In this document: in pieces, positions 44,960-64,000 of the stretch
Position numbering within the stretch: the first letter of the stretch is position 1
Layout: every line of letters starts with the position of its first letter
Translations under genes and position numbers: made by a program
The notes under the pieces: generated by a model
Told to the model about the DNA's origin: nothing
Seen by the model: only the letters and a program-made list of their open reading frames with translations
Databases searched by the model: none
Source of the DNA: Squalus acanthias
Lineage: Eukaryota
Assembly: GCA_030390025.1 (NCBI GenBank)
Contig: CM059432.1
Span: 38,504,001-38,568,000, forward strand
Direction: 5' to 3'
DNA: 64,000 nt

Positions 44960-47900
44960 TCAGGCCAACAGAGTACCTGATGGATACAGGACTAAATAGA
45001 AACATAGAAACATAGACATAGAAGATAGGAGCAGGAGTAGGCCATTCGGCCCCTCGAGCCTGCTCCGCCATTCGATGAGATCATGGCTGATCATCCAAAC
45101 CCAGTACCCTGTACCTGCCTTCTCCCCATATCCCTTGATACCTTTAGCTTTAAGAATTATATCTAACTCATTCTTGAATATATTTAATGACTTGGCCTCA
45201 ACTACCTTTTGTGGTAGAGAATTCCACAGGTTCACCACTCTCTGGGTGAAGAAATTCCTCCTCATTTCTGTCCTAAATGGTTTACCCCTTATCCTTAGAT
45301 TATGACCCCTGGTTCTGGACTCTCCAACCATCGGGAACATTTTTCCTGCATCTAGTTTGTCCAGACCTGTCAGAATTTTATATGTTTCGATGAGATCCCC
45401 TCTCATTCTTCTATACTCCAGTGAGTATAAGCCCAATCGACCCAATCTCTCCTCATATGTCATTCCTGCCATCCCAGGTATCAGCCTTGTGAATCTTCGC
45501 TGAACTCCCTCCATGGCAAGAACATCCTTCCTCAGATAAGGCGACCAAAACTGCACACAATACTCAAGGTGTGGTCTCACCAAGGCCCTGTACAACTGCA
45601 GCAGGACATCCCTGTTCCTATACTCAAACCCTTTCGCTATGAAGGCCAACATACCATTTGCCTTCTTCACCGCCTGCTGCACCTGCATGCTTACCTTCAG
45701 CGACTGGTGCACAAGGACACCCAGGTCTCGTTGCACTTCCCCTTCTCCCAATCTATTGCCATTCAGATAATAGTCTGCCTTTCTGTTTTTGACACCAAAG
45801 TGGATAACCTCGCATTTATCCACGTTATATTGCATCTGCCACGCTTCTGCCCACTCACCCAACCTGTCCAAATCATCCTGGAGTTTCTCGGTATCCTCCT
45901 CGCAGCACACACTCCCACCCAGCTTTGTGTCATCTGCAAACTTGGAGAAATTACATTTAGTTCCCTTATCTAGATCATTAATGTATATTGTGAATAGCTG
46001 GGGTCCAAGGACCAATCCCTGCGGTACCCCACTAGTCACTGCTTGCCACTCGGAAAAAGACCCATTAATTCCTACTCTTTGCTTTCTGTCCGCCAACCAG
46101 TTCTCTATCCAAGTCAATACCTTGCCCCCAATCCCATGTGCCTTAACTTTACATGCTAATCTCTTATGCGGGACCTTATCGAAAGCCTTTTGAAAGTCCA
46201 AATACACCACATCTACCGGTTCTCCCTTATCTATTTTCCCAGTTACATCCTCAAAAAATTCCAGTAGATTAGTCAAGCACGATTTACCTTTTGTAAATCC
46301 ATGTTGACTTGGTCTGATCCTGTCACTGTTTTTCAAGTGTTCAGCTATTACATCCTTTATAATGGACACTAGCATTTTCCCCACTACTGATGTCAGGCTT
46401 ACCGGTCTGTAATTCCCCGCTTTCTCTCTACCACCCTTTTTGAATAGTGGGGTAACATTAGCTACCCTCCAATCCATGGGTACAGTTCCAGATTCCATCG
46501 AATGTTGGAAGATGATCAGCAATGCATCTACTATTTCTAGGGCCACTTCCTTAAGTACCCTAGGATGTAGATTATCAGGCCCTGGGGATTTATCGGCCTT
46601 CAATCCCGTCAATTTCCCTAACACCATTTCCCTGCAAATACTGATTTCTCTCAGTTCCTCCCTTTCATCAGACCGTATGTTCTCCAACATCTCTGGGAGG
46701 TTATTTGTGTCCTCCTTTGTGAAGACAGAACCAAAATATGCATTTAATTGGTCTGCCATTTCTTTGTTCCCCATTATAACTTCCCCCGCTTCTGACTGCA
46801 AGGGACCTACACTTGATTTCACTAATCTTTTTCTCTTCACATATCTATAAAAACTCTTACAGTCAGTTTTTATGTTCCCTGCAAGCTTACTTTCATATTC
46901 TATTTTCCCCTTCTTAATTAATCCCTTTGTCCTCCTTTGTTGAATCCTAAACTGCTCCCAATCCTCAGGGTTACCGCTTTTTCTGGCCAATTTATATGCC
47001 CTCTCCTTGGATCTTATGCTATCCCTAATTTCCCTTGTTAGCCACGGTTGAGTCACCCTTTTTGTTTTATTCTTATGCCACACTGGGATGAACAAATTCT
47101 GTAGTTCATCCATGCAGTCTTTGAATGTTTGCCATTGCCTATCCACCGTCAACCCTTTGAGTGACATTCCCCAATCAATCCTACCCAATTCGCGCCTCAT
47201 ACCATCGTAGTTTCCTTTATTTAAATTCAGGACCCTAGTCTCTGATTCAACTACTTCACTCTCCATCCTAATGAAGAATTCTATCATATTATGATCACTC
47301 TGACCCAAGGGGCCTCGTACAACAAGATTGCTAATTAATCCTTTCTCATTACATAATACCCAGTCTAAGATGGCCTGATCTCTGGTTGGTTCCTCGACAT
47401 ATTGGTCCAGAAAACCATCCCGTAAACATTCTAGGAATTCCTCCTCCACAGTATTTTTACTAATTTGGTTAGCCCAATTTATATGTAAATTAAAGTCACC
47501 CATGATGACTGCTGTGCCCTTACTGCATGCTTCTCTAATTTCCCTTTTAATGCTATCCCCAAACTCCATATTACTGTTTGGAGGTCTATATACCACTCCC
47601 ACTAACGTTTTCTGCCCCTTGTTATTTCTCAGTTCTACCCATACAGATTCCACATCATCAGAGCTAATATCCTTCCTTTCAATTGTGTTAATCCCCTCTT
47701 TAACCAGCAATGCTACCCCACCTCCCTTTCTTTTTTGCCTATCTTTCCTAAATATTGAATACCCCTGGATGTTGAGTTCCCAGCCTTGGCCACCCTGGAG
47801 CCATGTTCCTGTAATCCCAATCAAATCGTATTCATTTACCTCTATTTGCGCAGCTAATTCATCCACCTTGTTCCGAATGCTCCTTGCATTGAGACACAAA

Positions 47901-47962
47901 GCCTTCAGGCTTGTTTTTTTAACGCTCTCAGACCGATATGAATTATTATTTACTGTGACCAT
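44960..47962 (-). CDS. CR1 ORF2 APE-RT, open frame, stop codon lost
   Basis: Continuous frame with [23 protein letters not shown] and FADD. The normal terminus GTGY* reads GTGYW, and the EN motif ITETW is ITGTW. Confidence 0.85.
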   Translation of the reverse strand: MVTVNNNSYRSESVKKTSLKALCLNARSIRNKVDELAAQIEVNEYDLIGITGTWLQGGQGWELNIQGYSIFRKDRQKRKGGGVALLVKEGINTIERKDISSDDVESVWVELRNNKGQKTLVGVVYRPPNSNMEFGDSIKREIREACSKGTAVIMGDFNLHINWANQISKNTVEEEFLECLRDGFLDQYVEEPTRDQAILDWVLCNEKGLISNLVVRGPLGQSDHNMIEFFIRMESEVVESETRVLNLNKGNYDGMRRELGRIDWGMSLKGLTVDRQWQTFKDCMDELQNLFIPVWHKNKTKRVTQPWLTREIRDSIRSKERAYKLARKSGNPEDWEQFRIQQRRTKGLIKKGKIEYESKLAGNIKTDCKSFYRYVKRKRLVKSSVGPLQSEAGEVIMGNKEMADQLNAYFGSVFTKEDTNNLPEMLENIRSDEREELREISICREMVLGKLTGLKADKSPGPDNLHPRVLKEVALEIVDALLIIFQHSMESGTVPMDWRVANVTPLFKKGGREKAGNYRPVSLTSVVGKMLVSIIKDVIAEHLKNSDRIRPSQHGFTKGKSCLTNLLEFFEDVTGKIDKGEPVDVVYLDFQKAFDKVPHKRLACKVKAHGIGGKVLTWIENWLADRKQRVGINGSFSEWQAVTSGVPQGLVLGPQLFTIYINDLDKGTKCNFSKFADDTKLGGSVCCEEDTEKLQDDLDRLGEWAEAWQMQYNVDKCEVIHFGVKNRKADYYLNGNRLGEGEVQRDLGVLVHQSLKVSMQVQQAVKKANGMLAFIAKGFEYRNRDVLLQLYRALVRPHLEYCVQFWSPYLRKDVLAMEGVQRRFTRLIPGMAGMTYEERLGRLGLYSLEYRRMRGDLIETYKILTGLDKLDAGKMFPMVGESRTRGHNLRIRGKPFRTEMRRNFFTQRVVNLWNSLPQKVVEAKSLNIFKNELDIILKAKGIKGYGEKAGTGYWVWMISHDLIEWRSRLEGPNGLLLLLSSMSMFLCFYLVLYPSGTLLA

Positions 47963-48665
47963 GTTTGATTTAAACCGTTGAGTTCTTTGCCTTCTACTTT
48001 TGTTTTTCTCCTTCCTGTCTTTTGCTTTTATCCTTGTTTCCCTTTCCTCTGTCTCCCTGCTCAGGTTCCCAACCCCCTGCCACTTTAGTTTAAACCCTCC
48101 CCAACAGCACTAGCAAACACTCCCCCTAGGACATCGGTCCCGGCCCTGCCCAGGTGCAGACTGTCCCATTTGTACTGGTCCCACCTCCCCCAGAACCGGT
48201 TCCAATGTCCAAGGAATTTGAATCCCTCCCCCTTGCACCATTTCTCTAGCCACGTATTCATTTGAAATATCCTCCTATTTCTACTCTGACTAGCACGTGG
48301 CACTGGTAGCAATCCTGAGATTACTACCTTTGAGGTCCTATTTTTGAATTTACCTCCTAACTCCCTATATTCTGCTTTTAGGACCTCATCCCGTTTTTTA
48401 CCTATATCGTTGATGCCTATGTGCACCATGACAACTGGCTGTTCGCCCTCCCCCTCCAGAATGTTCTGTAGCCGCTCTGAGACGTCCTTGACCCTTGCAC
48501 CAGGGAGGCAACACACCATCCTGGAGTCTCGTTGGCGGCCGCAGAAACGCTTATCTATTCCCCTTACAATTGAATCCCCTATCACTATAGCTCTTCCACA
48601 CTTTTTCTTCCCAGCCTGTGCAGCAGAGCCACCCATGGTGCCAGGAAGTTGGCTGCTGCTGCCAA
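44995..48665 (-). mobile_element. Near-full-length CR1 LINE (ORF1 esterase domain + uninterrupted ORF2)
   Basis: ORF1 AIVIGDSIVRG..CLPGARV..HIGIND; ORF2 1000 aa; 3'UTR hairpin and (TTTCTATG)n tail. Confidence 0.95.
48085..48660 (-). CDS. CR1 ORF1 C-terminal SGNH/GDSL esterase-like domain (5'-truncated)
   Basis: GDS block I, GxND block III, DSLHL block V. Confidence 0.8.
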   Translation of the reverse strand, partial: SSSQLPGTMGGSAAQAGKKKCGRAIVIGDSIVRGIDKRFCGRQRDSRMVCCLPGARVKDVSERLQNILEGEGEQPVVMVHIGINDIGKKRDEVLKAEYRELGGKFKNRTSKVVISGLLPVPRASQSRNRRIFQMNTWLEKWCKGEGFKFLGHWNRFWGRWDQYKWDSLHLGRAGTDVLGGVFASAVGEGLN

Positions 48666-49440: not shown

Positions 49441-50720
49441 TTTGAATATATATATAATTGTATATATAGTAGCCTGGCAGCTGGCCACCTACCTGCTTTT
49501 TTGTCTCTGGGAATGGTGTGCAGCTTGGGTGGAGCGGCGAATTAAAAGGATAAAAATAACTAAGAACATTTTTGCAACAGACCTTCTCTGAGAATTTTGA
49601 AGAAAAATTATGGCTGTAGGGTTAAGATCTCAGTGCAGAATTATGGATAGCTCAGTAAGGTCAGAAGCAAACTATGTAAAACATAAATACATTAAGCAGT
49701 TAAAAATAAAACGATAGTGGATTATATCTTTCATTTGTTACATTTGGTTCACCGGCATGCATTTCATTGAAAAGACATACCTGCAGTGCCATTGTGATAG
49801 GTATTTTCATTGGTAAAGATGTCACACTATGTGACATACAAAGCTACTATTTTATAGGACTTCCTTGTCCTTCTCGGCCTGTCTGCAGCCTTTAACATGG
49901 TTGACCACTCCATCCTCCTCCAACGCCTCTCCAATGTCGTCCAGCTGGGTGGGACTGCACTCGCCTGGTTCCATTCTTACCTATCTAATCGTAGCCAGAG
50001 AATCACCTGCAATGGCTTCTCTTCCCACTCCCGCATCGTTACCTCTGGTGTCTCCCAAGGATCCATTCTTGGCCTCTCCTATTTCTCATCTACATGCTGC
50101 CCCTCAGTGACATCATCCAAAAACACAGCATCAGTTACCACATGTACGCTGACGACACGCAGCTCTACCTCACCACCACTTCTCTCGACCCCTCCACTGT
50201 CTCTAAATTGTCAGACTGCTTATCCAACCTCCAGTACTGGATGAGCAGAAATTTCCTCCAATTATACATTGTCTTCGGTCCCCACCACAAACTCCGTTCC
50301 CTAGCCACCGACTCCATCCCTCTCCCTAACATCTGTCTGAGGCTGAGCAACACTGTTCGCAACCTTGGTGTCATATTTGACCCTGAAATGAGCTTCCGAC
50401 CACATATCCGCAGCATAACAAAGACCGCCTACTTCCACCTCCGTAACATTGCCCGTCTCCGCCCCTGCCTCAGCTCATCTGCTGCTGAAAACCTCATCCA
50501 TGCCTTTGTTAACCCTAGATTTGACTATTCCAAAGCACTCCTGGCTGGCCTCCCACGTTCTACCCTACGTAAACTAGAGGTCATCCAAATCTCGGCTGTC
50601 CATATCCTAACTCGCACCAAGTCCCGTTCACCCATCACCCCTGTGCTCGCTGACCTACATTGGCTCCCAGTTAAGCAATGCCTCGATTTTAAAATTCTCA
50701 TCCTTGTTTTCAAATCCCTC

Positions 50721-50914
50721 TGTCGTAAGAATGAGCCTTACGCGTGGTGAACTTAAAGTAAGCTTTAATCAACTAAAAAGGTGCTACATACAAAAGAGGT
50801 CTTACTCTATGCCTCTCCAGGATCCAACTGATCAGTCCAGTATTTATCCTGGACTAATCACAGGAAGTGATGCAATAAAGTTCGAGTCACAGGAAGCTGT
50901 ATTGTGTTACCACA
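50721..50914 (-). repeat. 3' LTR
   Basis: TGTCGTAAG..GTTACCACA direct repeat of 56748-56941. Confidence 0.97.
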
Positions 50915-50927
50915 TTCTCCCCCCCCA
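50915..50927 (-). other. Polypurine tract
   Basis: A G-run followed by AGAA on -, immediately upstream of the 3' LTR. Confidence 0.85.
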
Positions 50928-50932
50928 AAAGA

Positions 50933-53900
50933 TTAGGAGGCTGGGATGCTCCCTCCATTTCGTAGCCACTGGACGAGAGAGAGCCGCACCCGTTTGGGTT
51001 CTCGTAGCGGTAGAGGGCCCCTAGCCCGTTGACCCGCCGCGGGCCGTGGACCAGAGTCCGAGCGATCCAGCCCGCTCTGTGAGGGGTCAGGACGATCCTG
51101 ACTGTGTACTGGTGCCCGAACGGGTGTCGGGCAGGGCTGTGGCAGATCCGTTTCCGAGCGTACGGTACAGGGTGGATCGTGGCTGCGCGTGCGAGCCCCG
51201 ACGGGCTCATAGTCAGTCTGCCCCAGGTCGGCACGCTGGAGTGAGGTACCAGCCGGCGTCAGATCCAGATCGTGATGAGAGGCACCTGGCGAGCCCAGAG
51301 ATGTGCCTGGTACAATATCATCCCCTGGTGTCCCTCTATGTTTCGGCGGGCAGGGAGCCAGATCCCTCAATGACACGGTAGATTCCCGACCATCAGGATA
51401 CCGAATATAGGCGTAGGTAGGGTTGACGTCAGTGAGCTCAACCTCATCTACCAGGGGGTCATTCTTAGACGCCCGGACATATCTTCGGAGTAGCACTGGT
51501 CCCGGTGCAGTCAGCCACGACGGGAGAGATATCCCATAGGATGAGCGACGCTGAAATCGGAAGAACCGTTCATGAGGCGTCGTATTTGTGGCGGTCGAAA
51601 GGAGGGACCGTGTGGAGTGTAATGCGTCTGGAAGTACTGCTTCCCATTGCTGGTTGGGTAGGCCCCGAGATCTCAAAGCCAGACGTACCGCATTCCAAAT
51701 GATAGCGTTAAAACGCTCGACTTGCCCATTCCCGACCGGATGATAAGGCGTCGTTTTGCTGGCAGCAATACCCCGTTCCGAGAGATAGGCCTTGAGTTCT
51801 CCTGACATAAAAGAAGGGCCCCGATCCGAATGAACATAGGATGCCATGCCACAGAAAGCAAATACCTGCTCAAGGCAGCTGATAACCGTGGTCGTCAGCA
51901 TATTGGGGCAGGGAAAGGCAAACGGAAAACGGGAATACTCATCGACCATGGTCAATAGATAAGTGTTGCGAGTTGAAGAGGGCAACGGCCCCTTAAAATC
52001 GATGCTAAGCCGTTGCATTGGCTGGGTCGCATGTATGAGTATACCACCCGAGGGGCGGAAAAACCGAGGTTTCAATTCCGCACAGACTCTGCAGTCCGAG
52101 CACATCTTCTTTACATCCCCGGTAGAGAATGGGAGATTTCGGGACCGCACGAAGTGTAGCATGCGAGTAACGCCCGGATGACACAACCCATCATGGATGT
52201 CTATGAGCGTAGAGAGTGCCATGGCGGAGCAGAATGCTCGTGTGAGGGTATCCGGAGCCACATTCTCCTTGCCAGGTCGATAGTGGATGGTGTAACCAAA
52301 AGAGGCCAATTCCAGCCGCCAAAGCTGGATTTTATTATTTTTAATTTTGGTCCGTTTTCGATTATCGAGCATGAAGGCGACCGATCGCTGGTCCGTGATT
52401 AAGGTAAAGTGCTGGCGAGCTAGGAGATGACTCCACTTCCATACTGCCTCTATGATGGCTGTAGCTTCTTTCTCGACTGGAGGATAATGTAGCTCAGCCC
52501 CTTGAAAAGTCCTGGACAAAAATGCCACCGGACGACCTTCCTGATTCAGAGTGGCCGAGATCGCCACCTCCGAGGCATCACACTCAACAACAAAAGGAAG
52601 ACTCTCATCGATGGAGTGAAGAGCCGCTTTCTCCAACTGTTTTTTCAGGAGGTTAAAGGCTGCAACAGCCGCTGTGTCTGGTGGGAATGTGCTGGCCTTC
52701 AGTAGAGGTTGGATTCGGTCCGAGAAGTTAGGAATCCATTTAGCATAGTATGCAAACAGGCTGAGGGCCCGGCGCAAGGAGGCCGGATTCTTAGGTGGCG
52801 GGAGTTCTTGGAGTGGGCGAAGCCTTTCAGGGTCAGGTTTAATGATGCCATTGCCCACACAATAGCCAAGGATGTTGATGGTTGGTTGTGACTCAATGGA
52901 TTTAGCCGCATTTAATGTTAAATTACGGTGCTGGAGTGCATCCCAAAATCGTTGGAGATTGGCGTCATGTTCCCGCTGATTGCGACCTGCGACAGTAATA
53001 TTGTCCAGATAAGGAAACGTATCCTTCAAGTCTTCCTGTTTGACCAGGTCATCCATTGCTCGCTGGAAGACAGCCACTCCATTAGTGACCCCAAAGGGGA
53101 GGCGACGAAATTGATACAGCCGTCCATTGGCTTCAAAGGCCGTATACTGCTTGTCTGAGACCTTCAAGGGTACCTGATGATAGGCACTTTTCAGATCATA
53201 TGTTGAGAACACCGTGTACTCAGCCAATTTATTAACCATATCATCGATGCGCGGCAATGGGTATGCGTCCAAGTCCGTATATTGATTGATGGTCTGTGAA
53301 TAGTCAATGCACAGCCGTTTCTTGTGAGGTTGTAGAGGGTTCTTAACAATAACGACCTGGGCGCGCCATGGCGACGAACAAGGCTCGATGATATCCTCTG
53401 CTAAAAGCCGAGAAATCTCAGCCGCAATAAAAGACTGGTCTTCCTGACTGAAACGTCGTGACTTTGTTATAATCGGTTTGCATCGAGGAGGGATACTGGT
53501 AAACAGTGAGGGTTCATCCAGTGAAGCTGCTGACAATGCACAGAACGGTAATCGAGGTCGTATATTAGAAATAGTGAGTTCAGGTTTGGATCCGCCGAAC
53601 TCAATGGTGAGCTTCTTATGCTGCTTTTGAAAATCCAGCCCTAAGATAAGATCACTACATAAGTCCTTGAGCACCGAAAGCCGGGTGGAGGGATACCTGT
53701 GACCATTAAGTGTTATTTCAACCATACAAAAGCCAGAAATTCTGGTATTAAGTGATGACTGAGCCATCGCAACTGCCTGGTCCGATGGGAAAACATGTAG
53801 CTTTAACTCTGCAACAATCTGTTCCCTAATGAAACTATCAGTGCTACCTGAGTCAATTAAGGCATCTAAAGTATGTCCATTAATTGATGCTTTTGTAGCT

Positions 53901-53970
53901 GCATGGAATAGGTTCTGAGGACAAGCAGCTGTAATTGGTGTCGTTGCACAAAGAGTGGCTGAAACTCTAG
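50933..53970 (-). CDS. Gypsy pol: protease, RT, RNase H, integrase
   Basis: Open frame with ALIDSGS (upstream of the ORF-track Met), LPFGV..YLDN, CDAS..EKEA..TDQ, HHCC, and the SIDF..HSDRG..VERFN DDE; no chromodomain seen. Confidence 0.93.
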
Positions 53971-54865
53971 GGGGTAAAAATTAGGTCGCGCCCCATTTGG
54001 GGCGCAAATATCGTCTGGACGCAAATATTAGCGCCTGGCGCTAATTATCGGCACTGACTGGAAACTTCACTTTTACCGCCCCGGGAGGTGAGTGGAGCGC
54101 TAAATCAGGCGCTGCACACCTGTCTTAAGGCGCAAAGGCCAAGGAGTGAGGCGCTACCTCAGAGTGCTGGCGAAGCTCATGTAATGTCAGTCAGCAATGG
54201 AACACACACACAATGGCACGGGCCAGTTCTTAAAGGGGATGGTTAATCTTGCTTTCCATCCACATCCTGTTCATTGCAGCCTTGAATCTCGGCCTGGAGA
54301 GACTTGCACATCAAATGTGCTGGAAAGAACAATGGAGAGTACCAGGCAAAGAGCTCAGAGTGCAACTCCCACAGTCTCTGCTAAATCGATACAAGGAATG
54401 GCAAATCAAAATGAACTTGCAAAGTGCTGCTCAGTACCCAAAACTCCTTCACACAACGTTGAATCTCTCCAGAAGTCTCTCCCTCTCTCTCTCAGAATGC
54501 GTAGTTCAAAAATGCCACCAACAATAAAAGACAGGAAGAGGCCCCCTTTAAATAGCGCCCCCCCCCCAGCCCCACAGCGATTGATAGCGTTCCAGTCTTC
54601 TGGTCGTTGGATGCGCCAGGCGGTAAAGCAGGGGGCGGCACTCAATTTCCGCTCCGGGGCGTCCCAAGGGCGTTGCACCATGGAATGACGTCATAATCTG
54701 TGCGCGCAGGTGGTCGCAGCGGTAAGTTTTAGCGCCGCCGCACAATCTCAAGTTAAGTTCTCGAGCGGCGCAAACATCGCTGCGCCCGGGCGTTAGCGGC
54801 TTTGCGCCCCATTAGCGCCCTCTTAAGGCGCTAACGGGAGGCGCAACCAAGTGAATTTTTACCCC
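53971..54865 (+). mobile_element. Harbinger-type MITE, ~890-bp family (copy 2), inserted between gag and protease
   Basis: TIR GGGGTAAAAATT / AATTTTTACCCC, TAG TSD. Confidence 0.92.
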
Positions 54866-56669
54866 TAGGTGTGTTTCTTCGAGAGGAAGCACGATAGATT
54901 TTAGCCGGAACATCTTGATAGGCCCTTACCGGGGCAGTTCGGTAGGACTTAGCTTGATAAGCCCTCGTAGAGGCTCTTGATAGGCAAACCTTTGCAAAAT
55001 GACCCTTTTTGTTGCAATGACTGCAAAACGCATTGCGAGCAGGGCAGAATTTCCGAGGGTGGAACTCATCACCACAAAAGAAGCATTTCTTTGATTGCCA
55101 AGAGGCTGCCACAGTGGGGTCATCATCCTCTTCATCAGTGAAGTCATCAGATTGATCGTCAGGGATAAAGACCTCCCTAATAGAGTTCACCTGTGGCCTC
55201 TTAAATTGCCTGACTGTAGTTAAGGCAGTAGACCGAGGTCTGGGCACTGTATAAAGGTCTGCATTTCTTTTTGCCAGATCTAGAGAGCAACCCATGTCAT
55301 AAGCTCTCTGAAGCTCAAGGGGTAAAAATTCACTTGGTTGCGCCTCCCGTTAGCGCCTTAAGAGGGCGCTAATGGGGCGCAAAGCCGCTAACGCCCGGGC
55401 GCAGCGATGTTTGCGCCGCTCGAGAACTTAACTTGAGATTGTGCGGCGGCGCTAAAACTTACCGCTGCGACCACCTGCGCGCGCAGATTGTGACGTCATT
55501 CCATGGTGCAACGCCCTTGTGGCGCCCAGTAGCGGAAATTGAGTGGCGCCCCCTGCCTTACCGCCTGGCGCTTCCAACGACCAGAAGACTGGAACGCTAT
55601 CAATCGCTGTGGGGCTGGGGGGGGCGCTATTTAAAGGGGGCCTCTTCCTGTCTTTTATTGTTGGTGGCATTTTTGAACTACGCATTCTGAGAGAGAGAGG
55701 GAGAGACTTCTGGAGAGATTCAACGTTGTGTGAAGGAGTTTTGGGTACTGAGCAGCACTTTGCAGGTTCATTTTGATTTGCCATTCCTTGTATCGATTTA
55801 GCAGAGACTGTGGGAGCTGCACTCTGAGCTCTTTGCCTGGTACGCTCCATTGTTCTTTCCAGCACATTTGATGTGCAAGTCTCTCCAGGCCGAGATTCAA
55901 GGCAGCAATGAATAGGATGTGGATGGAAAGCAAGATTAACCATCCCCTTTAAGAACTGGCCCGTGCCATTGTGTGTGTGTTCCATTGCTGACTGACATTA
56001 CATGAGCTTCGCCAGCGCTCCGAGTTAGCGCCTCACTGCTCGGCCTTTGCGCCTTAAGAGAGGTGTGCAGCGCCTGCTTTAGCGCTCCACTCACCTCCCG
56101 GGGCGGTAAAAGTGAAGTTTCCTGTCAGTACCGATAATTAGCGCCAGGCGCTAATATTTGCGTCCGGACGATATTTGCGCCCCAAATGGGGCGCGACCTA
56201 ATTTCTACCCCCAAGTGTCTTACTTTCCAGTAGACGCTGGCGTATAAATGGGGAGGCAAGCCCGCAGATGAAAGCATCACGGATCATTTCTTCACTGTAC
56301 AGCTCAGCTGAGGCCGCCTGAAAGTTACAGTCCATACTAAGTCTGCGAAGCTCTTGGAGGAATTTATCAATGGATTCCTCCGGCCCTTGTTGGGCTGTAG
56401 CTAGTAGATCTGGCATAGACCTCATTCGGTGTCTTAGTATATAGTCTCTTAAGCGTCCGAATTGCCTCCTCGTAACTGCCCCATTCCTCCACATACTGAA
56501 ATACATTCGGGGTGACACAGTTGATGAGTATCCGTAACTTTGAGTCATCATCAGCCTTACAATATTCAAGAAAATTGTCAAACGTGCGATACCAGTGTTT
56601 CCACACCTTACCGGCTGCTGGGGTGTTTGGGTCCAAGTCAAGACGCGATGGTTTAAGGATGTTTTCCAT
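54866..56669 (-). pseudogene. Gypsy gag with two CCHC knuckles, split by a MITE and one frameshift
   Basis: MENILKPSRLDLDP..WKHW..; IRDAFICGL..IRQRLLE; CFFCGDEFHPRKFC and CSHCNKKGHFAKVC; frameshift near 56410. Confidence 0.88.
55319..56211 (-). mobile_element. Harbinger-type MITE, ~890-bp family (copy 3), in gag, inverted relative to copy 2
   Basis: TIR GGGGTAAAAATT / AATTTCTACCCC, CAA TSD. Confidence 0.92.
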
Positions 56670-56735: not shown

Positions 56736-56746
56736 AGTTGATTAAA
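56736..56746 (-). promoter_or_regulatory. Non-tRNA primer-binding site complementary to an LTR 11-mer (putative self-priming)
   Basis: Sense TTTAATCAACT 1 nt downstream of the 5' LTR; perfect reverse complement of the LTR 11-mer at 56791-56801; no TGG tRNA PBS. Confidence 0.7.
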
Positions 56747-56747
56747 T

Positions 56748-56941
56748 TGTCGTAAGAATGAGCCTTACGCGTGGTGAACTTAAAGTAAGCTTTAATCAAC
56801 TAAAAAGGTGCTACATACAAAAGAGGTCTTACTCTATGCCTCTCCAGGATCCAACTGATCAGTCCAGTATTTATCCTGGACTAATCACAGGAAGTGATGC
56901 AATAAAGTTTGAGTCACAGGAAGCTGTATTGTGTTACCACA
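56748..56941 (-). repeat. 5' LTR
   Basis: Direct repeat of 50721-50914; contains ATTAAA (sense) and an Inr-like TTAGTT. Confidence 0.97.
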
Positions 56942-58464
56942 CCCTCCATGGCCCCGCCCCTCCCTATCTCTGTAATCTCCTTCAGCCCCACAATCCTCCG
57001 AGACATCTGCGCTCCTCTAATTCTGGCCTCTTGCGCATCCCTGATTTTAATCAGTCCACCATTGGTGGCCGTGCCTTAGCTGCCTAGGCCCTAAGCTCTG
57101 GAATTCCTCCCTAAACCTCTCCGCCTCTCTACCTCTCAACCTCTCTTTCTTCCCTTAAGACATTCTTTAAAACCTACCTCTTTGATCATCTCCTTATGTG
57201 GCTCGGTGTCAAATTTTGTTTTATGACCCTCCTGTGAAGCACCTTGGGACGTTTTACTACATTAATACAAGTTGATGTTGTTATAGTGAGAGTATATCAC
57301 CCTGAGATTGCACAGTATGGCCACCAGTTTCCCAGTTGCCATTCTTACCCAGTAACTGAAATTTCTAATGCCCAAAATAAAGGTTTAATAAAACAAAATT
57401 TATATATTTATAAATTATATATTTCTAAAAAAAGATTGAATTAATCCATTGATTTATTTTTGAGTCTTTTAATGCCTTCATTAAAGGTTTTACTTAAAGG
57501 CCTCAACCTCTCCCAAAAGCCTGGACTTGGACTTGACGTAATGGCCTAGAAATTTGTTGGCATCACACCTGTTTTACAGGCGTAAAGCAGGTGCCTAAGC
57601 GTCCAATATGGCCGGCGGCACGTGCTCCCACCACACGCAAGAAGTGCACCACACGCCTTATTAGATTGAGCTTCTGCTTAAGATTCCAGGAAATTTTCAA
57701 AATAGTAAATAAAATACTTAAATAAGGGTCCTACGCTTGTTGTAGGACCCTTTTGTGAAATTGGGCTACCCAAGCATCTGACTCGCCACAGGATAAACTC
57801 ACTCAGTAACAGGCAACAGGGACTCTTCAGCACTGATATTTAAAGGACTCATTCACATAGTGTGGGCCGCTGCCGGCCCAGCCTTGCCCTGCCCAGAAGT
57901 CAAGATCGACCCCTGTGAGAGAAGTGAAGAAAAGAATTATGACTAGAGAAGAAACAGAAAATAGAGAACTAGAAGCAGGAAAGGAGAGGCAGAGAAAAAC
58001 ACTACGCAAGGGCAAGAGAAACAAGGAAGAAAGTGACTATATTCCCTGACTTACAACTTATAATGCCATGGGTCATCAATTAGCAAACAAATATATACAT
58101 TGGTACAGCAACTTAAATAGAATAGTATCAAGAGACAGAGACTAGCCACCCAACTGACAGACTGGAGTGGCGTATCTTTCGTATTCATCAAATGTCTTTC
58201 AGTGAAGAATCAGATCGAAATTGTAATTAATGGAAGGTTATACCACAAGCACTATTCCAGTACCTGTACAGTATGATGAGTACCCGAGTCATACTCTGCA
58301 CAGCAACAACCTACATTTATGTAATGTTCCACATGCACAAAAGACATCGATATTTTATCAGATGATTGACAAAAAGTGTGGAGGAAGAGAAGGCAAAAGG
58401 GGTGGAGGTGAAAGCATTAACAAAGACAAAAGTCTTTAGGAGGTTTTTGGAAGCGGGGAAAGAG

Positions 58465-58860: not shown

Positions 58861-59934
58861 AATAAAAAAAGTTGGAAGATGGAGATGTTGAAGGAGGGAG
58901 TCCTAAAGGGTGGGGCATAATAGCCGAAGGATTTGTCACCAATGGTGGCATGAGGGAGCTGGGAACAAGGAATAAGCCAGTGTTGGAGGAGCAGAGTGTG
59001 CACGCAGAGATAGAAGGAGATCACTGATATATGGTATGGTGAAGCCCTCAAACAATTTGAGGACACGCGCAAGAAGCATTGAGGCACCGAAAGACAGTGG
59101 AGTTGGGTGCAAATGGTGGTTGATGGGTTTGCAGGCCTCTTGTATGGCTGAAGATGCAGCCTGTAGGTTCTGGAAAAGCTGTTGTTTGTGATTGTTGGAA
59201 AGGGAAAGACTGACAAAGACAGCATGATAGAAATCAAGTCTAAGGATTTCTACTCCCTTGTCGATTACAGTTTAATGTTGGAAAGGAATGGAGAGCATCG
59301 GTTCCTTCAAAACACTCAAATTTAAGTTTAAAAAGTTCCCAAGCCATCCAACGGCTTGACAGAGTTGTGCTGCAGCCAAAGTTTCCGAGAGTTGGTCTCA
59401 AACCTCTTGGTTTAATGTGTTCTTCAATCAGACGTAGACCAGACACTCAAGTTATGCACTGTTGCTTTTGCATTGATTGGCATCCAAAGCCACAATTCAA
59501 AAGGACGAGTATCTCACCATGAGATAAGCAACAATGGAGATACAATAGAATGTGACTGACAACAGGCAACTTGCTTGAAAAATGAGACTGTCTTCCTTAT
59601 TCTACCTAAAAATTAAATGCTAAGAAATAAGAAGTTTATCCATATTGGCATGCAATTAATCTGTTTAAAAAGTATTAAAATATTTTATTTTTTCCACCCT
59701 CAGGTAATGGTATGAATAAGACTAGCTTTATTAATTCAGTACATAATTAGGTGGCAGCTTTTGAAATATGAGGTGAGTGAAGCAGTGCTACCTGGAGTTA
59801 CTGATCTGAGTGGGGCACTTTGGAGAGGTGTCCAGCAGATGGAAGATGTTTCAAAAATGACAATAATTAAATATATAAATAAATAAATTCCTTTCAACTG
59901 GAGGAATCGTGCAGGTGAGGGGTATAAAAATCAT

Positions 59935-62105
59935 AACATAAGAATATAAGAAATAGGAGCAGGAGTAGGCCATTTGGCCCTTTGAGCCTGCCACCATTCA
60001 ATAAGATCATGGTTGATCTTCTACCTCATCTCCACTTTCCTGCACTATCCCCATATCCCTTGATTCCCTTAATATTCAAAAATCTATCGATCTCTGTCTT
60101 GAATATACTCAACGACTGAGCATCCACAGCCCTTTGGGGTAGAGAATTCCAAAGATTCACCACCCTCCGAGTGAAGAAATTTCTCCTCATCTCAGTCCTA
60201 AATGGCCGACCCCTTATTCTGAGACTGTGACCCCTGGTTCTAGACTTCCCAGCCAGGGGAAACATAACCCCTGCATCTACCCTTCAAACCCTATAAGAAT
60301 TTTGTATATTTCAATGAGATCATCTCTCATTCTTCTAAACTCTACAGAATAAAGGCCTAGTCTACTCAATCTCTCCTCATAGGACAATCCCCTCATCCCA
60401 GGAACCAGTCTGGTGAACATTCATTGCACTCCCTCTATGGCAAGTGTATCCTTCCCTAGGTAAGGAGACCAAAACTGTACACAATACTCCAGGTGTGGTC
60501 TCATCAGGGCCCTACATAATTGCAGTAAGACATCTTGGGGGAAAAACCCAAAGAGAGCGCTAACAGGGCGCAAAGCAACTAGCACCTGGGCGCGTTGCTG
60601 CCAACGCCTCCTGCGAAATTCAGCGGGAGATTAGCGGCGGCGGTAAAAGTTAGCGCCCCGCAGCTTGCGCCCCGGCTGCGATCTTTGGTAGCGCCCCCTG
60701 ACTTACCGCCGGACGCTATGTCCGACAGGGTCAAGGGGGCCTACCTTCGGCCGGGGCAGCGCAAATTAAAGGGGAGGTGCCGGGCAGCCATTTTTGTTGC
60801 TGGCCGCCTGCTAGCACCTGCCCCCGTTGCCGTCCCCGGCCTTCTGTGAAGCCCCCCCCCCGCGGGGTGCCGGCTGTGCTCCATGAGCCCGGCACTTCTC
60901 TTGAGTGCCAGGCTCTTTTGCCGGCACTCGAATCCCTGGTGTCCCAGCTGGGCCCCAGGTTGCGCTGCTCAAGGCCCCTCCCCTTTAATAAGGGGAGGAA
61001 GGCCTGCAGTACCACGGCGCGACGTGATATTCACTCGCAGCGCCCCAAGAGGGAGGCGGGACGCTTCCAGTAGCGCCCCGCCTCCCTCTTGGGGCGCTAC
61101 CAGTGAATTTTGCGGGGGGGGGGGGCGCTAATTTTATCGGGTAGTAGCGCCCCGGCGAAGTTAGCGCCCCATTGGGGGCGCGACCCAATATTTCCCCCCT
61201 TTACTCTTATACTCAAATCCTCTTGTAATAAAGGCCAACATACCATTTGCTTTCCTAATTGCTTGCTGTACCTGCATGGTAACTTTAAGTGATTCGTGTA
61301 CAAGGACACCCAGGTCCCTCTGAACACCAACATTTCCCAATCTCTCACCATTTAAAAAATATTCTGCTTTTCTATTTTTCCTACCAAAGTGGATAACTTC
61401 ACATTTCTCCACATTATATACCATTTGCCATCTTCTTGCCCACTCACTTAGCCTGTCTATATCCCCTTGAAGCCTCCTTGCATCCTCCTCACAACTTACA
61501 CTCCCACCCAGCTTTGTATCATCAGCAAACTTGGATATATTACATTTGGTCCCCTCATCCAAATCATTGATGTAGATTGTGAATAGCTGAGGCCCAAGCA
61601 CTGATCCTTGTGGTACCCCACTAGTTACAGCCTGCCAACCCGAAAATGACCCGTTTATTCCTACTCTCTGTTTTCTGTCCATTAACCAATCCTCAATCCA
61701 TGCTAGTATATTACCCCCCAATCCCATGAGCCCTAATTTTGTTTAATAACCTCTTGTGTGGTACCTTATCGAATGCCTTCTGAAAATCCAAATACCCCAC
61801 ATCCACTGGTTCCCCCTTATCTATTCTGCTAGTTACAACCTCAAAAAACGCTAACAGATTCGTCAAACACGATTTCCCTTTCATAAATCTGTGTTGACTC
61901 TGCCCAATCCTATTATGATTTTCTAAGTGCCCTGTTACCACGTCCTTAATAATAGATTCTAGCATTTTCCCTACTACTGATGTCAGGCTAACTGGTCTGT
62001 AGTTCCCCGTTTTCTCTCTCCCTCCTTTCTTAAATAGTGGGGTTACATTTGCCACCTTCCAATCCGCGGAAACCGTCCAGAATCTATGGAATTTTGGAAA
62101 ATGAC
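59935..62105 (-). mobile_element. CR1 LINE, 5'-truncated RT, split by a MITE
   Basis: ORFs 61711..62148, 61161..61727 and 60026..60265; 3'UTR and tail at ~59935-60000. Confidence 0.9.
60537..61198. mobile_element. GC-rich Harbinger-type MITE (662 bp)
   Basis: Ends GGGGGAAA / TTTCCCCC, CTT TSD; many TAGCGCCCC motifs; one end resembles the ~890-bp family terminus. Confidence 0.85.
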
Positions 62106-63422
62106 AACCGGAAGTGAAAATAACTTCTATTTTATATTGCTGCCTCAAAATACCTCATCATAATAGGGTGTGTTTCAAACTCGGGACGTGGATAAATGTT
62201 TTTAAAATGGAAACATTTAAAGAGGTGTGAAGAAAGTGGGAACAAGTGAATAGCTTTTTCAAAGCACTGGCATGATGGGCCGAATGGCCTCCTTCTGTGC
62301 TCTAACATTCAATGATTCAAACCAACCTTCACAATCAGCAAGTAGAAAGTTCTATCCAATTGATATGTAGCTCTTAGCACAAATCTATTATTTGCAAAAA
62401 AAAGAAAATCTCTTGACAAATTTATTCAAGCATTTACAACTCTGACAGGTGATATCTGTTTTCTGTAAGTGAATAGTTTAGTCAGTGATAGCTTTGTGAC
62501 GGGTCCCTTTTGGATCTAGTCATCTAGACAAGAATACCAGAGCTCTGCAAAATTCACATTTCATTAGCAAATCTGCATCCAGCAGGTTGGCACTGCAGTT
62601 TGCTTTGTGGATCCTCATCCATAAAACAAGGGAAATCTGCAGCTATGCACTCTGCTTGCTGCTCCAGTCAGGCACCAGACCAGGGAAAATTAATGACATC
62701 TAATGTACCAGTGACTGCTCATCAAGGGAAGCAAATGAGAGATTCCATTGTGGCTTCACTGCTGAGCTGAGTGAAGACTTTCACACAATGCCAAATCAGA
62801 GATTTTATTTGTCACAAGCCCTGACACTAAAAATATGCTAAATTACCATATGTCCTTTACATTGTTTGAATAATCGGTGTCTGACAGCTAAAACAGAACA
62901 ATAATCAGGTATCAGCTGGCTCTCTCCATAGACAGAGTGAAAATAAAATGTCAAAACACTGAGGGAAAGAGCTGGGAGCAGAGATTGTCATTTCACTAAT
63001 GTGGAAGGAAAGTTACAAGCAAATTGCAGATAGTTATTTTTAGTTATACCCACATTAGGGAAAATGTTCTGATTTCATGCTCCCTGGCAGGGAGCTTTGC
63101 TTGCCGAGAATGTATATCAGAAATTGTGGCTTGCGCTGCGCACAATTTTCCAACCATTTAAAATAATGGTCAAAAGATCGTGCACGCCTGAATTTCCAAC
63201 CTGCGTTCTCTGTGGGCAAGGCTCCCCACCAGAAGCACAAAATCTGAAAAGTATCCTACATTATGTCATAATCTCTAACTGCTTCCTTTCATTAAATTTT
63301 AAACCAATCCTGCTCGTTGAAATTAAATATTATTTTTCTTTTGCCAGCACCACAGCAGTGTAACAATCTGTAACGTGAAACAGTAGGACTTCGGCTCGTT
63401 CAAGCATCTTACACATAACAAA

Positions 63423-64000
63423 GACCAGAAATTCGGTATCGCCCCGTTTGGGCCGCAATTATCGGCCGGGCCCAAAGTTTAGCGCCTGGCGCTAATTATC
63501 GCCCCCGACTGCAAACTTGGCTTCTATCGCCCCTGGAGGTGATTCGAGCGCTAAATCAGGCACTACACACCTCTCTTAAGGCGCTAACGCCGAGGAGCGA
63601 GGTGTTACCTCAGAGTGCTGGCGAAGCTCATGTGATGTCAGTCAGCAGTGGAACACAGACACACTGGTGCCAGGCAGTTCTTAAAGGGGAGGGTCGATCT
63701 TGCTTTCCATCCACATCCTGCTCATTGCAGCCTTGAATCTCAGCCTGAGAGACCTGTACATCAAATCTGCTGGAAAGAACAATGGAGAGGCCCAGGGAAA
63801 GAGTTCAGAGTGCAGCCCCCATAGTCTCTTCTAAATCGATGCAAGGAAGGTCAAATCAAACTGAACCTGCAAAGTGCTGCTCAATACCCAAAACTCCTTC
63901 ACACAGCGTTGAATCTCTCCAGAAGTCTCTCTCTCTCAGAATGCGTGTTGCAAAAATGTCACCTACAAAAAAAGGCAGGAAGCGGTTGCCTTTAAGTAGC
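63423..64000 (+). mobile_element. Harbinger-type MITE, ~890-bp family (copy 4, runs off the window)
   Basis: Colinear with 16634-17220. Confidence 0.88.

Follow-up and report, generated by a model that had tools for sequence, protein, structure and literature searches.

How does a Gypsy element prime its reverse transcription when its primer binding site (PBS) carries no TGG and pairs with a segment of its own LTR? The element that raises this question lies on the minus strand of the window, the whole 64,000-nt stretch of Squalus acanthias DNA analysed here, and runs from 56941 to 50721 (LTR positions are counted from 56941). Its 5' LTR (56748..56941) is 194 nt long with TG..CA ends, and shows one difference from the 3' LTR (50721..50914). 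A 5-bp target-site duplication flanks the element, with the 5' copy GAGGG at 56942..56946 and the 3' copy at 50716..50720. The pol open frame (50933..53980, 1015 aa) includes protease, RT with the motif YLDN, RNase H and integrase, and a polypurine tract ending in GAGAA occupies 50915..50926. The PR-RT-RH-IN order, the TG..CA LTRs, the polypurine tract and the target-site duplication identify it as a Ty3/gypsy element. All these features are on the minus strand, as is gag, whose ATG is at 56669. The 5' part of gag (56212..56669) is spread over two frames in this copy, and two insertions of about 0.9 kb interrupt the gene, which lies in more than one frame; the original prediction had missed this. 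Insertion 1 (55319..56211) has terminal inverted repeats and a 3-bp duplication, and insertion 2 (53971..54864) is of the same kind in the opposite orientation. The inverted repeats end in GGGG, the two insertions are about 82% alike, and a third copy is found at about 63429-64000. We take these insertions to be Harbinger-like MITEs.

The surroundings of the element are themselves repetitive. It is nested in a very high-copy LINE-like RT fragment (49858-50750 and 56942-57087), and a 1049-aa minus-strand frame at 44960-48109 reads as a LINE endonuclease-RT that looks CR1-like on inspection; about 59900-62150 there are diverged copies of it. A target-site preference that at first seemed apparent among the copies was an artefact of the query flank. 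Three copies (L187, L304 and L308) form a sub-lineage in which the beginning of U3 is duplicated; the duplicate follows a second purine tract and lies shortly before the real polypurine tract.

The pairing itself is as described from the single copy. The 5' LTR ends in ..ACGACA (56748), followed by A (56747) and by the PBS TTTAATCAACT (56746-56736), without TGG. The PBS is the perfect complement of AGTTGATTAAA in the LTR (56801-56791, LTR 141-151), an 11-mer that includes ATTAAA and is the predicted 3' end of a self-primer; the helix is exactly 11 bp long. The gap described as 44 nt consists of 43 nt of LTR, or 44 counting the spacer A. A second stem in U5, CGTAAG/CTTACG, is present at 56769-56764 and 56756-56751 and is predicted to fold (56751..56769), and a short hairpin predicted at 56778..56790 stacks on the primer helix. 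The AT after the terminal CA (56746..56747) may correspond to a 2-nt end overhang of the linear DNA. In folding, the 77 nt from 56801 form a structure in which the 11-bp helix encloses two hairpins (z -2.6). A longer segment, the 146 nt from 56845, keeps the helix, yet is not unusual overall (z -0.32). An 11-mer matching the PBS occurs in 0 of 20,000 dinucleotide shuffles of the LTR. Rfam and ARAGORN report no match in the LTR region or the window. A candidate intron in the LTR (GTAAGA..TTTTTAG) was rejected, being only 33 nt long with its AG itself paired.

In the host genome, of 3.7 Gb, both 11-mers are identical in 30/30 of the best-matching copies, a set picked by similarity and hence biased. 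Exact LTR-PBS junctions number 2,914 in the window family and a second family combined; the second family (family 2) has 79% RT-RH identity to the window family. Three junctions at G000:C1:566512, 570759 and 575006, spaced by 4,247 nt, probably belong to a tandem array of elements with shared LTRs.

Whether the two 11-mers change in step can be asked of the relatives. Of 7,993 candidates scored in a protein search, 1,185 qualify as relatives at E <= 1e-50. Those with a name come from Palaemon, Trichuris, Caligus and Nematostella, while Acropora and Montipora supply cluster members; together these represent crustaceans, nematodes and cnidarians. Pairing was scored on metagenome contigs, not on these named animal relatives. 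From 85 fetched loci, 37 have a gag start and 31 of those have enough upstream DNA for the pairing test. At least 10 bp of pairing right after a CA are found in 23 of the 31 relatives, and in 0.3% of 930 shuffles. One of the 23 (L040) has a mutated LTR and for that reason scored out of register. Five of the remaining eight (L036, L070, L079, L094 and L109) pair with a mismatch or in a separate analysis, and two (L093 and L102) have no recognisable LTR. The last, L105, has an LTR-like leader without PBS-LTR pairing; it is either a counter-example or a chimeric contig. Four clade members (L111-L114) are in contigs filed as bacterial MAGs, probably by animal contamination. Two scans of viral contigs find no relative, and an ESM Atlas search with the gag of one relative returns only generic gag clusters.

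For a closer comparison we hand-picked 20 representatives, namely the window element, family 2 and 18 outside loci, several of which are close kin. The 11 bp are perfect in 15 of the 20, and these comprise nine different sequences. More than one Watson-Crick pair type appears at 7 of the 11 helix positions, and a PBS pairs better with its own LTR (10.7 of 11 on average) than with that of another representative (8.4). The loop varies between 23 and 67 nt, yet the distance from the terminal CA to the helix is invariably 1-2 nt; in L046 there is no pairing before a spacer of 2 nt. Relatives with 50-72% pol identity preserve the pairing with different letters. Within one family, L034 differs from L041 in both LTRs and in the PBS. 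The covariation that the self-priming proposal called for among family members is found: the pairing is present in 23/31 relatives, and PBS and LTR 11-mer change in step at 7/11 positions.

Compensatory changes also occur within the dogfish genome. Family 2b is a compensatory subfamily: a matched T>C / A>G change is present in 17 of its 28 fetched copies, and 9 of the 11 non-matched copies fit CpG decay. Outside this subfamily, PBS variants at positions 5-9 are compensated in 1 of 20 cases, with the 3' LTR unchanged there. That one case may be explained by chance, 1/20 being about the chance level in older copies, and these mutation footprints do not tell a 5' from a 3' primer. In L299, we observe a matched change in the 5' LTR 11-mer and the PBS with the 3' LTR unchanged, possibly a hairpin-templated correction at the DNA level, or chance.

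A mature tRNA 3' end needs a TGG-type site in order to pair from its CCA (PMC5006619, in the sections available). Since the PBS here has no TGG, a mature tRNA 3' end is unable to pair with it in this way. The original proposal also asked whether a host tRNA or tRNA half matches the PBS. The half-tRNA test is negative: the pattern of 11-mer plus T-loop motif has 10 matches, against 12 in a reversed control, and ARAGORN finds no tRNA gene in 10/10 of the matched loci; this is a partial test, not one of a full tRNA set. Control Gypsy families in the same genome, for which "Mag-like" is our own label, have a TGG-type site in 9 of 16 loci, that is, where LTRs were found, and their best self-pairing is only 4-8 bp (6 loci tested). 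In a young tRNA-type Gypsy family (L339, L341, L349 and L350), the frame has about 1,335 aa and the LTR terminates in AAAC, not CA.

The absence of a tRNA site, together with a pairing to the element's own LTR that changes in step, makes it likely that copying is primed by a cut piece of the element's own RNA. Where that RNA begins is a separate matter. The prediction of a start at 56801, the first base of the 11-mer, is not supported in that form, given a TATA-like box, pairing upstream of the 11-mer, and a T at position 1 in three families. The TATA-like GATAAATA is at 56868..56875 (minus strand, LTR 67-74), 74 nt upstream of the 11-mer, so that transcription would be expected to start near 56855-56837. 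In family 2, a canonical TATAAATA precedes the 11-mer by 92 nt; of the 18 outside representatives, only 3 have a TATA-like word about as far away. Among the 15 perfectly paired representatives, pairing continues beyond the 11-mer on its upstream side for 1 nt or more in 14 and for 2 nt or more in 13, with a nominal p that is overstated by kinship. The longest helices have 18-19 bp, and the window helix has no upstream extension. Because of the extension in 14/15, the primer is probably longer than 11 nt. At position 1 of the 11-mer, 16 of 20 representatives have A, and the three families with T keep the pair; position 2 is an invariant G (20/20), in an initiator-like TTAGTT context. The TATA-like box is in the loop of an inverted repeat, AGTCCAG..CTGGACT (56861-56882, LTR 60-81), where the copy L206 folds back. 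As for the poly(A) signal, the primer segment ends in AATAAA or ATTAAA in 12 of 20 representatives, and 8 have no canonical hexamer. A masking of the 5' poly(A) signal by the helix is possible in those 12, and is not general.

Rearranged LTRs point to the place of a cut. We looked for LTRs in which the sequence switches immediately before the 11-mer ends. Among 24 LTRs with a non-A at LTR 150, 12 are rearranged exactly there, and these belong to seven elements: in three, about 22-155 is missing from both LTRs, in two, about 131-151 is missing from both, and the other two have an inverted U3 end plus TT joined to A151. In matched controls, 1/17 is rearranged at position 129 and 1/6 at position 161; in an unmatched control, 0/15. 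That 7 of 9 events fall at one of three sites has a binomial p of 0.008, which is to be read knowing that microhomology (AGC/AGCTT) favours deletions and that L178 and L179 are perhaps not independent because they share a sub-lineage marker. A151 is retained in every join, and no microhomology is seen in L203, L206 and L183. The search for a non-A at 151 returns one point mutant only. A sister subfamily has 2/2 LTRs deleted at the same point, both in one element, and in family 2b the single case is rearranged (1/1, L183); the junction cluster is absent from family 2a (0/2, with 0/17 in its control). Deletions in both LTRs are most simply made at minus-strand transfer, which would place the end of the strong-stop DNA at 151 and the cut at 150/151. 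The junctions therefore suggest LTR 151 as the last position reached by minus strong-stop DNA and, for the RNA, a cut at 56792/56791 (minus strand); the rearranged copies join at A151. Read as footprints, they suggest a cut site precise to the base. The clustering at LTR 151 fits a cut and points to no particular enzyme. L203 and L206 carry two extra bases at the U3 end, as expected if RT first copies AT. In L196, CA and AT are followed by a jump, and both this copy and the 2-nt spacer of L046 fit a copying that begins with AT.

A second kind of aberrant copy was found by searching the genome for a PBS that runs on into an inverted LTR. The window family has two such fold-backs, both among the three elements that lack 22-155 and hence have LTRs without the 11-mer. 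In one (L178), the inverted copy ends at LTR 96/97, 30 nt after the TATA-like box, with the end blurred by a 6-nt patch (LTR 85-80); in the other it ends near LTR 38. In family 2, three events account for four fold-back loci; each event traverses U3, and two continue into the polypurine tract and the integrase tail. One of them, L225, bears 297 nt of its own 3' end in inverted form, with polypurine tract and integrase tail included. In L183, U3, R and the 11-mer are joined directly to antisense U5. Fold-backs run into U3 in 4 of 5 events, and they are rare (5 events for 2,914 junctions). They show that RT is able to pass from the PBS into the LTR at exactly this register. They do not decide the origin of the primer, since any of three sources would suffice: a long 5' fragment, a 3'-end RNA or a snap-back of plus-strand DNA.

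How do these observations combine? That the element primes itself in some manner is very probable, and the original proposal of RNA self-priming without a tRNA is supported by the covariation, the compensatory subfamily, the negative half-tRNA test and the footprints of reverse transcription. To the exact version in which a 5' piece of the element's own RNA, released by the cut at 56792/56791 and probably of more than 11 nt, serves as the primer, we give about an even chance. Transcription would start upstream of the 11-mer, at about 56855-56837, under the TATA-like box. R would then fold onto the PBS and close the 44-nt loop, and the element's RNase H would, by analogy with Tf1, cut within the helix, one base before its 3' end. 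RT would copy AT first, the usual 2-nt end overhang, and then U5 and R to position 151. The resulting strong-stop DNA of about 45 nt would transfer to the short 3' R stretch between the cut and the poly(A) site, and an occasional mis-transfer would give rise to the deleted LTRs. If the primer is a 5' fragment, U3-reaching fold-backs would arise only with a further template switch.

Self-priming could take two other forms. The element may copy Tf1 exactly, with an RNA that starts at 56801 and whose first 10-11 nt are cut off as the primer. The conserved 11-nt register, with its G at position 2, its prevalent A at position 1 and its TTAGTT context, agrees with such a start, as does the window helix of exactly 11 bp; the strong-stop footprints fit equally well, and fold-backs are possible if plus-strand DNA ending in a PBS copy anneals to any LTR 11-mer. 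We nevertheless find an exact copy of Tf1 unlikely, since upstream pairing in 14/15, reaching 18-19 bp, is not expected of bases outside the transcript, three families keep the pair with T at position 1, and the canonical TATAAATA of family 2 is 92 nt upstream. The primer may also come from the 3' end of an element RNA, either the molecule being copied or one packaged with it; that end would be trimmed directly behind ATTAA(A) and carry U3 and R. The U3-reaching fold-backs (4/5 events), the inverted 3' end in L225, the direct join of L183 to antisense U5, and the fact that both window-family fold-backs are in elements whose LTRs lack the 11-mer all speak for a 3'-end primer. It predicts no template end at 151 in the 5' R, however; the fold-backs are few and selected for aberrant products, and no copy compensated in one step, in both LTRs and the PBS, is among the 20 non-subfamily PBS variants. 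We judge it improbable.

The helix could instead be regulatory only, hiding the 5' poly(A) signal or aiding packaging, with an outside RNA such as a tRNA fragment as primer. The hexamers that end 12/20 primer segments fit such a role, and a pairing partner exists for the 5' copy only. Against it, 8/20 segments have no canonical hexamer, the site has no TGG, the helix stays fixed 1-2 nt after CA despite a loop of 23-67 nt, the PBS tracks the LTR through nine different perfect sequences, and the half-tRNA pattern does not exceed its control (10 against 12, no tRNA gene in 10/10 loci). A purely regulatory helix is for these reasons highly improbable. Chance complementarity in an AT-rich stretch would be compatible with a helix that is short and AT-rich and with a 146-nt region whose fold is not unusual (z -0.32); the 0/20,000 shuffles and a pairing kept with changed letters at 50-72% pol identity speak against it, and we regard it as excluded because of the covariation.

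The clade to which this self-priming element belongs resembles the Mag lineage in some features. Tandem CCHC knuckles in gag are typical of Mag, and the window element has them; the tRNA-type TGG site of the Mag-like control is absent from it. Other likenesses are short LTRs and, in relatives, gag and pol joined in one frame of about 1,200 aa. The Mag-like families of this genome differ in having TGG and YLDD, are at 27-30% RT-RNase H identity, and fall outside the clade. Compared with Ty3, the RT-RH region scores 151 bits for this element and 187 for the Mag-like control. Cigr-1 presumably matches the clade relatives in size, and the clade may be linked to it. In the supplement of PMC6238403, as far as available, Cigr-1 is filed under Mag.

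The two-knuckle gag and the missing chromodomain that had been described are confirmed: the knuckles (CX2CX4HX4C) are at 54984..55085 on the minus strand, and no chromodomain or SH3_Tf2-1 match is found in any of 21 proteins (the window pol and 20 of 120 listed relatives). Most clade members have the YLDN RT motif and two zinc knuckles. In an RT-RH tree of 35 rows, from which 8 loci without a full match were dropped, the clade is recovered (100/99) on a branch of 1.8, apart from the TGG-type families. The suggestion that the element may be outside Tf1/sushi draws on the missing chromodomain and the long-branched clade. The tree has no Tf1/sushi row, because the SH3_Tf2-1 and Chromo matches in the genome gave no usable outgroup: the SH3_Tf2-1 matches were retrovirus-like elements or had no RT match, and the 16 Chromo matches were all in frames of at most 251 aa. 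The retrovirus-like elements matched by the SH3_Tf2-1 profile (L130, L133-L135, L144, L146 and L147) are about 8-9 kb long and have near-identical LTRs.

With Tf1/Tf2 of S. pombe, Tj1, Tosmo and the Tf1/sushi group of chromoviruses, the clade shares the absence of a tRNA site and a PBS whose complement is a stretch of some 11 nt in the LTR. A chromodomain is present in all seven fission-yeast elements according to the portion consulted of bioRxiv 2022.12.06.519325, whereas the clade has none and has two CCHC knuckles and, in most members, YLDN. The element probably works like Tf1 yet fails a defining feature of chromoviruses, the chromodomain. For Tf1, cleavage adjoining the helix has been demonstrated (PMC7175516, in its available part), whereas here it is read from footprints. 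Further differences from Tf1 are a helix of 10-19 bp that often overlaps a poly(A) hexamer and a primer that probably does not start at the first base of the helix. The predicted fold at this locus has the primer helix and two inner hairpins, which falls short of establishing a three-duplex "pretzel" of the Tf1 type. A stem right after the helix is similar in several relatives, and not significant against a shuffle control. In the available text of PMC6317226, self-priming is predicted from PBS-LTR complementarity for Tcn1, a plant gypsy, and for the copia elements TAR, Houba and Osr-1, so that for TAR copia it has already been proposed outside Tf1/sushi. Those elements are from plants and from another superfamily or the chromovirus branch, unlike the present one, whose named relatives are animal. 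Taken together, the available portions of the papers tie self-priming to Tf1/sushi, Tcn1 and plant TAR copia (PMC6317226, PMC4600332, PMC6238403, PMC5445492, PMC3601003, PMC3670739, PMC2774666, bioRxiv 2022.12.06.519325, PMC7175516, PMC5006619 and PMC5341516). The literature covered here, to which Repbase and the original Tf1 and Cigr-1 papers do not belong, holds no description of self-priming in this animal clade.

What would this mean for Gypsy elements? In the published work, to the extent that it was accessible, the demonstrated case of self-priming is Tf1, and the proposed ones are its chromovirus kin and a single copia lineage of plants. Our tentative reading, which goes further than the single locus and which we hold somewhat short of even, is that a widespread animal Gypsy clade evolved self-priming independently of Tf1/sushi and along another path. 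Its primer would be an internal R segment located at the poly(A) signal; cleavage within an RNA duplex would expose this segment, which would belong either to a long 5' fragment or to the 3' end of a second RNA. A single helix would in that case set priming, the DNA end and the silencing of the 5' poly(A) signal. The footprints cast doubt on the rule by which the opening 11 nt of the RNA make up a self-primer. Annotation tools that require a tRNA PBS would miss or mislabel this clade, which has thousands of young copies in one vertebrate-sized genome. A self-priming clade would, by inference, also evade control by 3' tRNA fragments. If the reading is true, the escape from tRNA priming arose again, in a separate clade of animal Gypsy elements without a chromodomain.
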